From Desulfomicrobium sp. (lineage in GTDB: Bacteria; Desulfobacterota; Desulfovibrionia; Desulfovibrionales; Desulfomicrobiaceae), in assembly GCA_040768745.1 (NCBI GenBank), contig JAXGMI010000002.1, positions 1 to 64,000 on the forward strand: 64,000 nt of DNA, in the 5' to 3' direction. How positions within the stretch are numbered: position 1 is the first letter of the stretch; each line of letters opens with the position of its first letter. The position numbers were made by a program, and so were the translations under genes. The notes beneath the pieces are model-generated. The model ran no database searches and was not told the DNA's origin. It was given only the letters and a program-made list of their open reading frames with translations. Positions 1 through 13,180 of this stretch are shown here, piece by piece.

Positions 1-804
1 GTCAGGACCGGGATAACGGAAGTGCGTAGTGCGAGGTGCGTAGTGCGTTTCAGGCTCTCGAACTTCGGTTCTCGCACTTCGCACTCCGCACTTCGCACTC
101 AAAAACACCGGCCAGCGTTCCTGTAAAAAGGCGAAGAATGCCTCATCGTCCGGAACGATTTCGGAGAGCGGCCAGGCTTTGAACCCATCATGGCCTTTCA
201 GAGCCTGGATGAGCCGCTCGGCCAACATCAGCGGAATTGGGAGCTTGCTGTAGTGCAAGCGGAGCAAGGCGCGAAGCAGCTCCACCTCGTTGGCGATCAG
301 CTCAGCGGCGATGCCGAACACATGACGGAGAATGAAATCCTTGGTGGCGTTGTCGCCCATGCGATCCGGCGGCGACTTGCGCTGGGCCTCAAAAAGCGAA
401 TCCAGCAAGCTCCGGTCGAGCTTCTCGATGACCGGGTAGCTCAGATTGGGAAAGAGATCCCCCAAGTTGAACGACAGTTTGCGGCCCGCCTGGAGCAAGT
501 CGTAAGGCAACGATTCCAGCTCCGCATCCTGCAAGCGGAGGACCACCACCAGGTCTGTGTGCTCACCCCGGTCCCAGATCGAACGGTACTTGGACTCATA
601 GGCGTATCTGAATTCGACCGGGTCACTGAACTCGATCAGGTCGAAGCCGCGCCCGCGAAGCTCCAAGGCCAGCTTCTCCTCGGTCAGCAGACAATCCGGG
701 TCCGCGACCAAGGTCAGCTTGCTGACGTTGGGCACAAAGTCGTTCAGGATGGCGTCTCGCCAGGAGGGAGAGTGCGAAGTGCGTTGTGCGGAGTGCGATG
801 TCAT
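1..804 (-). CDS. pglZ: BREX-3 PglZ-family phosphatase, N-terminal part (runs off left edge)
   Basis: Manual translation from ATG 804: MTSHSAQRTSHSPSWRDAILNDFVPNVSKLTLVADPD...EFRYAYESKYR...ERWPVF...YPGPD, open to base 1. It follows the helicase in BREX-3 order and is absent from the ORF track because it is truncated. Confidence 0.8.
   Translation of the reverse strand, partial: MTSHSAQRTSHSPSWRDAILNDFVPNVSKLTLVADPDCLLTEEKLALELRGRGFDLIEFSDPVEFRYAYESKYRSIWDRGEHTDLVVVLRLQDAELESLPYDLLQAGRKLSFNLGDLFPNLSYPVIEKLDRSLLDSLFEAQRKSPPDRMGDNATKDFILRHVFGIAAELIANEVELLRALLRLHYSKLPIPLMLAERLIQALKGHDGFKAWPLSEIVPDDEAFFAFLQERWPVFLSAKCGVRSARTEVREPETHYAPRTTHFRYPGPD
21..100. repeat. Inverted pair of heptamer tandem arrays (family A, RAGTGCG/CGCACTY) inside pglZ
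   Basis: agtgcgt-agtgcga-ggtgcgt-agtgcg (21-47) and ctcgcac-ttcgcac-tccgcac-ttcgcac (71-98). The pglZ frame reads through both. Confidence 0.9.
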
Positions 805-1175
805 TCTCTTGTACTCCGATCCAGTGATGTACGAAGTCCGCCTATTGCCCGACTCAGGGTGATGCATTTTTCGCAGATATTGGAGCAATCGGATTCAGAA
901 ACATATCCCAGCGATTTTGCGAGCTGAATCTGGCTTCTTACTTCTGCGCATGATCCTCGGGCAATGGACAAAAACTGTTTAAACTCTTGTCTGCTGTATC
1001 GTTCGAAGCCCTCGGCGATGTTAGACATCACTGAAACGGATGCACGCTGAATCTGATCCCGAAGCCCCCAATCTTTGGAAAACTCGCCATCCCTCGTTAG
1101 ACCGTAAATTGTCACGGACAGGTCATGGGCCATCTGCCAGATTTGCAAGTCCTCGAATCGTTCGACTTTGCTCAT
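801..1175 (-). CDS. Four-helix-bundle protein #1 (23S rRNA IVP / bAvd-like family)
   Basis: MSKVERFEDLQIWQMA...[23 protein letters not shown]...[17 protein letters not shown] signature. ATGA overlaps at both ends. Flanked by family A arrays at 771-797 and 1178-1210. Confidence 0.92.
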   Translation of the reverse strand: MSKVERFEDLQIWQMAHDLSVTIYGLTRDGEFSKDWGLRDQIQRASVSVMSNIAEGFERYSRQEFKQFLSIARGSCAEVRSQIQLAKSLGYVSESDCSNICEKCITLSRAIGGLRTSLDRSTRE

Positions 1176-12749: not shown

Positions 12750-13147
12750 GGCAACTCCTTCGTCGTTGCAGGGGCGAGGGACGAGGGTTTAGAGGCGAGT
12801 TTGGCCATCAACCCGTTGGTCATTTTGTTGATTTCTACTTGTAAACTGAGAATAAGGCCGAGCTGGTCAGTTGAGAGATACCCGAGTCGATGGGCAATCA
12901 GTAATTGGGTCTCAACCTCTGCCAGTGAACCCTTTGAGATTGACAAGAACCGATGGAATTCTTTTGTTGAGTTTCTTGCATGGCCTTCAGCAATGTTTGA
13001 TGGAATCGCAACAACGGCTCGTCGAAGCTGATTCGTCAATCCATATAACTCTTCCGTAGGAAAAGTTCTGGTTGCTTGATAAACCATTTCAACCAAATCC
13101 AACGCTTTCTGCCAAACAATCAAATCCTTGTAACTCTGCACGCTCAT
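12746..13147 (-). CDS. Four-helix-bundle protein #4
   Basis: [15 protein letters not shown]...[30 protein letters not shown]...[18 protein letters not shown]. Low GC. ATGA overlaps with brxF and brxC. Confidence 0.93.
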
Positions 13148-13180
13148 ATCTCGTCCCTCACCCCTAACTCCTCGCCTCTC
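12770..13180. repeat. Heptamer family D (AGGGRYG/CRYCCCT) inverted arms at 12770-12800 and 13150-13180
   Basis: aggggcg-agggacg-agggttt-agaggcg-ag against ctcgtccctcacccctaactcctcgcctctc. Confidence 0.8.

Follow-up and report, generated by a model that had tools for sequence, protein, structure and literature searches.

The BREX locus and its interleaved four-helix genes

The window analysed here comprises the first 64,000 nucleotides of contig JAXGMI010000002.1 (contig C2) of a Desulfomicrobium sp. genome (assembly GCA_040768745.1), and its positions 1–13,700 carry, on the minus strand, a bacteriophage exclusion (BREX) type 3 operon recognized by Pfam and NCBIfam profile searches. Interleaved with the BREX genes are four genes encoding four-helix-bundle proteins of the PF05635/TIGR02436 family ('23S rRNA intervening sequence protein', IVP1–IVP4), and distributed over the same operon are inverted pairs of arrays built of a heptamer, which are designated P1–P9 from the contig start and form the subject of this report. 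The genes are given below in the order of transcription, with reference to an array-free sister operon and to a related locus of another genome (G170), both of which are described in later sections.

13144–13638, minus strand: brxF, BREX-3 P-loop protein (Pfam/NCBIfam)
12746–13147, minus strand: IVP4, intact PF05635 gene; start and stop both overlap the neighbouring genes as ATGA
8906–12749, minus strand: brxC (DUF6079; Pfam/NCBIfam), stop at 8906–8908
8472–8890, minus strand: IVP3, PF05635 gene in two pieces, the 1-nt frame break lying at the A4 run 8709–8712
About 5590–8472, minus strand: pglX methyltransferase, in at least six frame pieces; its head takes in the 3' arm of P6 and hairpin P5
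4627–4740, minus strand: stranded old N-terminal piece of the helicase gene, with 94 % DNA identity to the sister operon and a 1-nt deletion
4170–4568, minus strand: IVP2, an undisrupted PF05635 gene with 78 % identity to the IVP that G170 has at this junction
1172–4144, minus strand: SNF2-type helicase belonging to the BREX-3 operon; its single open frame continues through P3 and P4 arm c
801–1175, minus strand: IVP1, intact PF05635/TIGR02436 gene; its ATG at 1175 overlaps the helicase stop (ATGA)
1–804, minus strand: pglZ (BREX-3 type), of which just the N-terminal part is present; its ATG at 804 overlaps the IVP1 stop (ATGA), and the P2 3' arm forms its N-terminal extension

Three of the IVP genes matched PF05635 with E values of 1e-37 to 1e-39, together with TIGR02436, the fourth being matched as two halves, and all above-cut-off PF05635 matches of the 3.09-Mb genome (three contigs, 99.99 % complete) fall in the BREX locus. 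A solved relative, 2GSC, which is the PF05635 protein XCC0516 of Xanthomonas, was matched at an E value of 3.7e-14. The comparison of IVP2 with its G170 relative gave a pN (nonsynonymous) of 0.146 and a pS (synonymous) of 0.93, indicating that the IVP protein is under purifying selection and functional. Genes of the PF05635 or 'four helix bundle protein' type are very common, and to our knowledge they have remained without an assigned function since their discovery in rRNA intervening sequences. IVP genes are mostly co-directional with their surroundings, both neighbours lying on the same strand in 44 of 64 cases.

Contig C2 begins about 20 nt past hairpin P1, and the remaining two thirds of pglZ (residues 274–689), as well as any gene downstream of it, are in none of the three contigs; given this contig end beside P1, the assembly seems to break at heptamer arrays. 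The present helicase frame uses a GTG start at 4144, inside arm b of P4. No Rfam family was matched in window positions 1–14000 at E <= 1.

Inverted pairs of heptamer arrays

The nine inverted pairs described in an earlier note on this DNA are all present. Four of them enclose a whole four-helix gene, as that note had recognized, one of these genes (8543–8859) being frameshift-split; the others contain no complete gene. The arms are listed below, 5' and 3' referring to the sense (minus) strand.

70–102, minus strand: P1 5' arm, GAGTGCG family, in frame inside pglZ
18–50, minus strand: P1 3' arm, of a gene-less hairpin with a 19-nt loop
1176–1210, minus strand: P2 5' arm, read as the helicase C-terminal tail; cassette of IVP1
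768–803, minus strand: P2 3' arm; cassette of IVP1
1912–1942, minus strand: P3 5' arm, in frame in the helicase gene
1793–1826, minus strand: P3 3' arm, in frame in the helicase gene
4587–4620, minus strand: P4 arm a, of 5' type, with stops in all frames
4128–4192, minus strand: P4 arm b, of 5' type, interrupted, holding the helicase GTG start 4144
3943–3983, minus strand: P4 arm c, of 3' type, combining GAGTGCT with GAGGACT units and translated in the helicase frame
8158–8196, minus strand: P5 5' arm, in frame in pglX
8113–8150, minus strand: P5 3' arm, in frame in pglX
8882–8914, minus strand: P6 5' arm, containing the brxC stop (8906–8908); cassette of IVP3
8420–8457, minus strand: P6 3' arm, read as the PglX N-terminus; cassette of IVP3
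9333–9364, minus strand: P7 5' arm, in frame in brxC
9303–9328, minus strand: P7 3' arm, in frame and immediately following the BrxC CPHC motif
9768–9802, minus strand: P8 5' arm, in which one 6-nt unit (a G is missing after 9788) breaks the brxC frame
9664–9702, minus strand: P8 3' arm, in brxC
13148–13182, minus strand: P9 5' arm, read as the BrxF C-terminal tail; cassette of IVP4
12766–12798, minus strand: P9 3' arm, read as the IVP4 C-terminal tail

Most arms were reported by Tandem Repeats Finder (TRF) as period-7 arrays of 3–5.3 copies with 68–90 % matches. P9 (12770/13180), although not regular enough to be reported by TRF, can be recognized by eye, and its arms pair at −37 kcal/mol. 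A strict period-7 detector (12/14 matches) missed most arms and was replaced by an inverted-repeat search combined with a periodicity score. The arms belong to four heptamer families, namely GAGTGCG at 18–1942, GAGGACT at 3943–4620, CGAGTT[GC] at 8113–9802 and GAGGGAC at 12766–13182, so that the nine pairs do not amount to nine independent trials. The GAG-containing arm comes first on the sense strand in all nine pairs (10/10 when both pairings of the arm at 3950 are counted), and the 5' arm always contains more G than C. Its description as purine-rich holds for some heptamer families and fails for the GAGTTCC-type arms, in which only three of seven letters are purines. Random slippage, considered improbable in the earlier note, does not explain the pairs, which are non-random, and period-7 arrays are concentrated in the locus: TRF rows of period 7 with at least three copies number 15 in C2:21–9800 versus eight, unrelated, in the other 3.08 Mb.

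The folding check that had been proposed indicated that the pairs are able to form long stems. The arm duplexes of all pairs have energies of −18 to −47 kcal/mol and z scores of −1.6 to −5.7 against dinucleotide shuffles of the arms, the values for the four cassettes being −36 to −47 kcal/mol and −2.0 to −5.1. Folded as whole hairpins, the five short pairs gave z scores of −6.2, −5.2, −4.1, −1.8 and −2.7; P7 (9303–9364) is weak on the sense strand, as 11 of 200 shuffles fold equally well.

Two of the pairs without a complete gene enclose host-homologous coding sequence, of 85 nt in P3 (WELSWSDG, corresponding to WDLNWPDG in the sister operon) and 65 nt in P8. Beside the 3' arm of P8, the array seems to grade into brxC: the host coding sequence at 9610–9664, with the sense sequence CGAAAACTCAAGAACTC, is homologous to KLQKLKK of the sister protein and resembles two degenerate units.

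Gain of the pairs as DNA

A sister BREX-3 operon, found in a genome of another family of the same phylum (G264, locus L111), has 89–98 % DNA identity to the window in the blastn-aligned flanks, parts of pglX being 73 % identical or unaligned. This operon contains 0 heptamer arrays and no IVP gene, and each pair coincides with a gap in the alignment of the window with it, as follows.

P9 cassette: 436 nt in the window, 59 nt in L111
P6 cassette: 581 nt in the window, 242 nt in L111
P4 cassette: 682 nt in the window, 74 nt in L111
P2 cassette: 452 nt in the window, 39 nt in L111
P7, gene-less: 159 nt in the window, 93 nt in L111 (+66)
P5, gene-less: 101 nt in the window, 41 nt in L111 (+60)
P3, gene-less: 172 nt in the window, 148 nt in L111 (+24)
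P8, gene-less: 219 nt in the window, 172 nt in L111 (+47)

The interval between pglX and the helicase gene also differs between the two operons, measuring 863 nt with a DUF3800 fragment (5323–5580) in the window (4727–5589) and consisting of 3.65 kb of different sequence in L111 (7612–11263).

Among ten other BREX-3 loci, arrays are absent from six, two are heavily colonized (G170, G139) and two partially. The brxC/pglX junction carries an IVP cassette in the window, in G170 and in G139, each with its own heptamer family, and the site just after the BrxC CPHC motif carries a translated hairpin in both the window and G170. Hairpins of the respective own families, several of them inside brxC and pglX, occupy 3800–10950 in the G170 locus (L113) and 3700–7720 in the G139 locus (L120), for which the families AAGTCCA and GAGTCGC/CGGGTCA are listed, and the IVP genes lie at 4993–5355 and 9901–10278 (L113) and at 4854–5219 (L120).

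Filled and empty forms of the operon were both found in four metagenome runs from an anaerobic digester and a landfill (two DNA and two RNA libraries), which were compared as assembled contigs. The joined, empty form across 12750–13187 occurs in all four runs, with 134 letters in between versus 59 in the G264 operon, and thus represents a third variant of the brxF/brxC junction. A joined form was also found across 3940–4626, and another across 762–1220, with 44 other letters in between, only in X16, an RNA library. Cassette-bearing contigs are present as well, at several-fold lower depth than the joined forms, and the two forms may belong to different strains. Given the array-free sister operon together with the filled and empty metagenome forms, the pairs are acquisitions or replacements at the DNA level.

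One contig of run X5 joins the same-sense arrays 8140 and 8423 with 10 other letters in between, skipping the pglX head; this joint is either a deletion between arrays or an artefact of the assembly graph. Joints with short sides are unreliable, and those from 99 to 10051, from 3973 to 9804 and from 9662 to 3954, with sides of about 20 nt, were rejected as probably formed by arrays of other organisms. The low-cover bins 4114–4570 and 6856–7769 prove nothing.

Accommodation within reading frames

The cassettes are closely fitted to the operon, with ATGA stop/start overlaps at four junctions (helicase/IVP1, IVP1/pglZ, brxF/IVP4 and IVP4/brxC), and the cassette arms at junctions are read as C-terminal tails or N-terminal heads of the neighbouring proteins. 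For four of the five intragenic pairs (P1, P3, P5 and P7), a single tblastn alignment to the sister protein extends across the pair, which is therefore in frame and stop-free; the chance of all four being in frame by length alone is about 0.012. The exception is P8, located at two 1-nt frame breaks (after 9788 and near 9590). These breaks, which lie inside P8 or beside it, put brxC into three frames, with profile positions 1–984 and 1035–1238 in different frames. The G missing after 9788 is present in the contigs of three metagenome runs. The pglX breaks at 5707, 5917 and 6214 fall on T or A homopolymers, where metagenome contigs differ by 1 nt. Assembly errors, possibly long-read homopolymer errors, are as likely a cause of the frame breaks as real decay. 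Outside the BREX locus, an unrelated DUF4815 gene (17069–20872; 17323–18693) has a break of this kind too, changing frame at the C run 18696–18702.

The frames of these arrays would also matter if they served as contingency switches, in which the gain or loss of a unit (7 = 1 mod 3) would toggle brxC, pglX, the helicase gene or pglZ by phase variation. The unit length is no multiple of three, four BREX genes contain 7-nt arrays, the break in the brxC frame coincides exactly with the defective 6-nt unit at 9788, where relatives in three runs have the full unit, and heptamer copy number differs between Coxiella strains (PMC4990558). The arrays are, however, short (3–5 units) and imperfect, no change of ±7 nt is among the metagenome indels listed, and the difference at 9788 is of 1 nt and may itself be an assembly error, which makes such switching decidedly improbable.

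A wider comparison was based on 80 fetched loci with relatives of the IVP gene from many phyla, 79 of which were examined. A strong periodic inverted pair surrounds the gene in 54 of the 79 (period 7 in 41, period 8 in seven, period 9 in five and period 10 in one). Translation of the arms was rejected as a general rule on this set: a long upstream frame covers just 6 of 54 5' arms, and a long downstream frame covers 29 of the 54 3' arms. A Shine–Dalgarno role of the GAG-rich arm for the IVP gene was likewise rejected, since in other loci the end of the arm and the aligned start of the gene are separated by anything between a few and about 185 nt.

Correspondence between arms and cassette genes

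Of 19 arrays in the window, 17 are of the heptamer family that goes with the nearest IVP gene, as are 15 of 16 in L113. For ten pairs from four families, the probability of a fully blocked arrangement is 24/12600. Over 41 loci, IVP identity and unit distance are correlated (Spearman −0.26, Mantel p <= 0.0005), and arms and IVP gene thus co-diverge. Of the gene-less hairpins, P5 has a loop in which 12 of 12 nt are identical to an IVP start region, only 1 of 500 shuffles being as good, and it fits a cassette that would have lost its gene. The loops of P1 (0.52–0.82 of shuffles as good) and P7 (0.098) show no IVP similarity beyond that of shuffles.

Polarity of the arms

The order of the arms had been interpreted as a fixed polarity on the mRNA. 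This reading does not hold, since the two arms of an inverted repeat follow each other in one and the same 5'-to-3' order whichever strand is read, and the plus strand also has the G-rich arm first; polarity therefore cannot mark the mRNA as the acting molecule. The tempting conclusion that the arm order of an inverted repeat identifies the acting strand thus needs correction. In terms of double-stranded DNA, the GAGT strand is directed toward the centre of the element from both sides, an arrangement also seen for the binding sites within transposon terminal inverted repeats.

Random arm polarity was not seen in the comparison set, the 5' arm having more G than C in 43 of the 54 pairs, fewer in eight and equal numbers in three. 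When the unit consensuses were aligned by rotation with either orientation allowed, 41 of 47 fitted the profile G-A-G-T-[T/G]-[C/A]-[C/T] in the orientation of the 5' arm, and after random pre-flipping the clustering regained the true orientation for 37 of 47 on average. Arm polarity, common to relatives in many phyla, is a trait of the element family and not of the messenger RNA, and it has presumably been inherited, in the same way as the orientation of transposon terminal inverted repeats.

Action at the RNA or DNA level

If the sense transcript were the selected form, one would expect more G·U than A·C mismatches on it and a higher stability of the sense stems. Of the ten pairings in the window, five favour the sense stem and five the antisense stem. 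In 53 other loci there is no sense-strand bias, either in stem stability (27 versus 26) or in the mismatches (34 G·U versus 32 A·C), and the action at the RNA level that the earlier note had envisaged therefore found no support in this test. Because sense and antisense stems are equally stable and G·U pairs are not in excess, we conclude that the complementarity is maintained at the DNA level. The evidence favours a DNA-level reading, comprising acquisition, replacement and recombination.

RNA-level processing, in which RNase III would cut the transcript at the stems, segment the mRNA and so set the relative amounts of the BREX proteins, is a rival reading. Stems of 28–35 bp with strongly negative energies, an RNase III gene (rnc) in the genome, the co-directional placement of most IVP genes and the example of the Coxiella intervening sequence, in which the same protein family is associated with a heptamer-built stem cut by RNase III in vitro (PMC4990558, as far as its accessible portions state), are all in its favour. 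Apart from the missing strand asymmetry in stability and mismatches, it is opposed by the layout of the operon, where stem cuts would remove upstream stop codons and downstream start regions and sever four coding sequences, and where ribosomes must traverse nearly all arms. Contigs from the RNA libraries run uncut across whole cassettes (562–1576, 12724–13216), a weak point given that DNA may be present in such libraries. RNase III cleavage at the stems of the window is plausible by analogy only, and RNA-level processing as the explanation of the pairs is unlikely.

The same symmetry bears on the possibility that the arrays are sites of DNA rearrangement by inversion, excision or template switching, with or without the IVP, so that the pairs would be intermediates or scars. 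Complementarity that is symmetric on both strands fits homogenization at the DNA level, such as quasi-palindrome correction. In addition, a single habitat contains both filled and empty forms, three genomes have a helicase gene whose 5' end is duplicated at the cassette, and the X5 contig joins same-sense arrays. The cassette, on the other hand, has no recombinase or transposase gene, the empty forms, at 90–99 % identity, could just represent different strains, none of the metagenome contigs showed an inverted form, and joints with short sides are unreliable. Rearrangement sites of this kind are rather improbable as the explanation of the pairs.

Relation to known elements

The closest known system is the ORF-bearing 23S rRNA intervening sequence (IVS; ORF, open reading frame), a likeness that the earlier note had drawn and that is borne out by the enclosed genes, which belong to the same protein family. 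The helix-45 IVS of Coxiella burnetii encodes S23p and has a 28-bp stem, cut by RNase III in vitro, and tandem heptamers, which lie in the arm upstream of the ORF and vary in copy number among strains; these statements, a citation of a Leptospira IVS and the view of the IVS in the literature as a selfish or once-mobile element are taken from portions of PMC4990558. The cassettes in the window share with such elements the PF05635/TIGR02436 ORF in the loop, terminal inverted repeats with a stem of about 28 bp and tandem heptamers. They differ in that they reside in a protein-coding defence operon, none of them being inside a 23S rRNA helix, are ATGA-coupled, have translated arms and are accompanied by gene-less pairs inside coding sequence. 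Excision by RNase III is established for the rRNA IVS and would be a prediction for the cassettes of the window.

Residence in coding sequence recalls the Rickettsia palindromic elements (RPEs), which Ogata et al. are said to have described in 2000 as palindromes inside protein genes, read in frame and located in tolerant regions; reportedly, they are dispersed genome-wide, are not built of periodic heptamers and have no full-length, gene-bearing form. The gene-less pairs P1, P3, P5 and P7 resemble RPEs in being in frame inside ORFs, whereas the elements of the window are confined to one 13-kb locus and have units in common with the neighbouring cassette gene. Similarly, the division into gene-bearing (autonomous) and gene-less (non-autonomous) forms of short hairpin elements is shared with repetitive extragenic palindromes and their associated transposases (REP/RAYT) and with MITEs (miniature transposable elements that have inverted repeats). 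Unlike these, the window has a cassette gene that is no recognizable transposase, no target-site duplication, arms of tandem heptamers and copies within a few kb of the gene-bearing form.

The IVPs also have a distant four-helix-bundle similarity to Avd of diversity-generating retroelements (DGRs), with matches below cut-off to bAvd PF22296 (E 1e-6, 27–30 bits, cut-off 40) and Avd NF033474 (E 1e-5, 24–26 bits, cut-off 80); the same kinship of PF05635 and Avd is noted in the part of PMC10053308 that was available. A DGR at this locus was rejected, as no reverse transcriptase (RVT_1) was found in the 99.99 % complete genome and neither a template nor a variable repeat was found.

Rehm et al. (2015, PMC4692102) reported convergent pairs of the heptamer GGGAATC from two Xanthomonas genomes, 70 in one and 75 in the other, and interpreted them as G-quadruplex or stem-loop motifs without a link to the PF05635 family; in the available portions of that paper, the terms 'four helix' and 'intervening' do not occur. 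The likeness extends to the G-rich array coming first and to the genus, Xanthomonas being the source of the solved XCC0516 (2GSC). These cases could be taken to mean that the arrays of the window are structure-forming simple repeats unlinked to the gene, arising by slippage or kept as G-quadruplex motifs. Yet the units GAGTGCG, GAGGACT and GAGTT[GC]C (GAGTTCC included) have no G-tracts, lack GGG and cannot form G-quadruplexes, GGG being found only in the GAGGGAC family. The arrays are also confined to the locus that holds all IVP genes, the arms co-diverge with the gene, and the polarity and GAGT core are common to many phyla, so that an origin unlinked to the gene is barely credible.

Interpretation

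A BREX type 3 operon that is shared horizontally harbours four cassettes and five or six gene-less pairs, which occupy junctions between genes as well as places where brxC, pglX, the helicase gene and pglZ tolerate insertions. A cassette is a PF05635 gene (IVP/S23p, distantly Avd-like) between two inverted arrays of about four GAGT-core heptamers, and the nine pairs are probably the arms of such intervening-sequence-type cassettes and of their gene-less derivatives. The elements would be tolerated owing to their compatibility with translation, provided by ATGA-coupled junctions and in-frame, stop-free arms, and would spread between homologous operons by recombination, together with flanking host sequence. 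Gene-less pairs would arise locally from a cassette, either by loss of the gene or by copying or homogenization of the arms, and the conserved IVP protein is a putative recognizer of GAGT heptamers. In an untranslated transcript, the 28–35 bp stems would be RNase III substrates, as they are in rRNA intervening sequences.

Several observations weigh against the interpretation of the pairs as cassette arms and their derivatives. No junction shows a clean insertion with a target-site duplication, 21–59 nt or more of host sequence being replaced, and transposition is therefore not supported. P3, P8 and P4 b/c flank 65–145 nt of host-homologous coding sequence instead of a gene or short loop, and these enclosed segments are far more diverged from L111 than the flanks are. 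Diverged patches and a duplicated helicase 5' end also occur around the arms in three genomes (that of the window, G170 and G266): an old, shortened N-terminal piece has remained upstream of the cassette, and a full-length, diverged N-terminus follows downstream of it, between arrays. Our best guess for both features is the import of already colonized, diverged alleles by recombination anchored on one side by homology, and the host-like segments in P3, P8 and P4 b/c are explained only if such import is assumed. Co-divergence and the clustering of cognate arrays can come from common descent or co-import alone, and the similarity of the P1 loop to IVP genes is no better than that of shuffles. 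The frame breaks in brxC, pglX and IVP3 mean that tolerance may be incomplete or that the operon may be decaying, and arm translation is not general, as the 6 of 54 5' arms in a long upstream frame in other loci indicate.

A more far-reaching and quite tentative proposal, which we consider doubtful, is that a selfish element without a transposase owes its specificity and propagation to the PF05635 protein. A pentameric IVP would recognize its own GAGT-core arrays and drive the local copying or homogenization of arms into nearby DNA, coding sequence included, thereby producing gene-less 'non-autonomous' hairpins within a few kb of the gene. If this were true, a single system would account for the large PF05635 family, for the heptamer repeats that many bacteria carry without an explanation and for the intervening sequences of rRNA.

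The locus provides a natural experiment, in which two nearly identical BREX-3 operons, one free of elements and the other with four cassettes and five or six gene-less hairpins, can be compared, and both operon forms co-occur in digester and landfill metagenomes. It combines gain as DNA, residence in coding sequence mostly without breaking frames, a family-wide GAGT orientation and cognacy to the nearest gene, which makes the recognition of repeats by the protein, local spread and the cost or benefit to phage defence testable. The near-identical array-free sister operon, the filled and empty metagenome forms, the strand-symmetry argument with its G·U/A·C comparison, the GAGT orientation profile and the clustering of cognate arrays around each cassette gene are contributed by the present analysis. 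In the literature searched, no description was found of heptamer-armed PF05635 cassettes in protein-coding operons or of translated gene-less forms, heptamer arms around the PF05635/TIGR02436 family were not found described outside rRNA, and no IVP term was found in the top-ranked restriction-modification and BREX papers; the main text of a 2026 BREX comparative paper (PMC12839542) contains none of the terms 'four-helix', 'Avd' and '23S'.

Genes beside the operon

The BREX operon is adjoined at 13956–16801 by genes encoding GGACT (gamma-glutamyl cyclotransferase-like), GATase_6, DUF5049 and Amidoligase_2 proteins, and an HTH_17 gene is located at 13553–14086.

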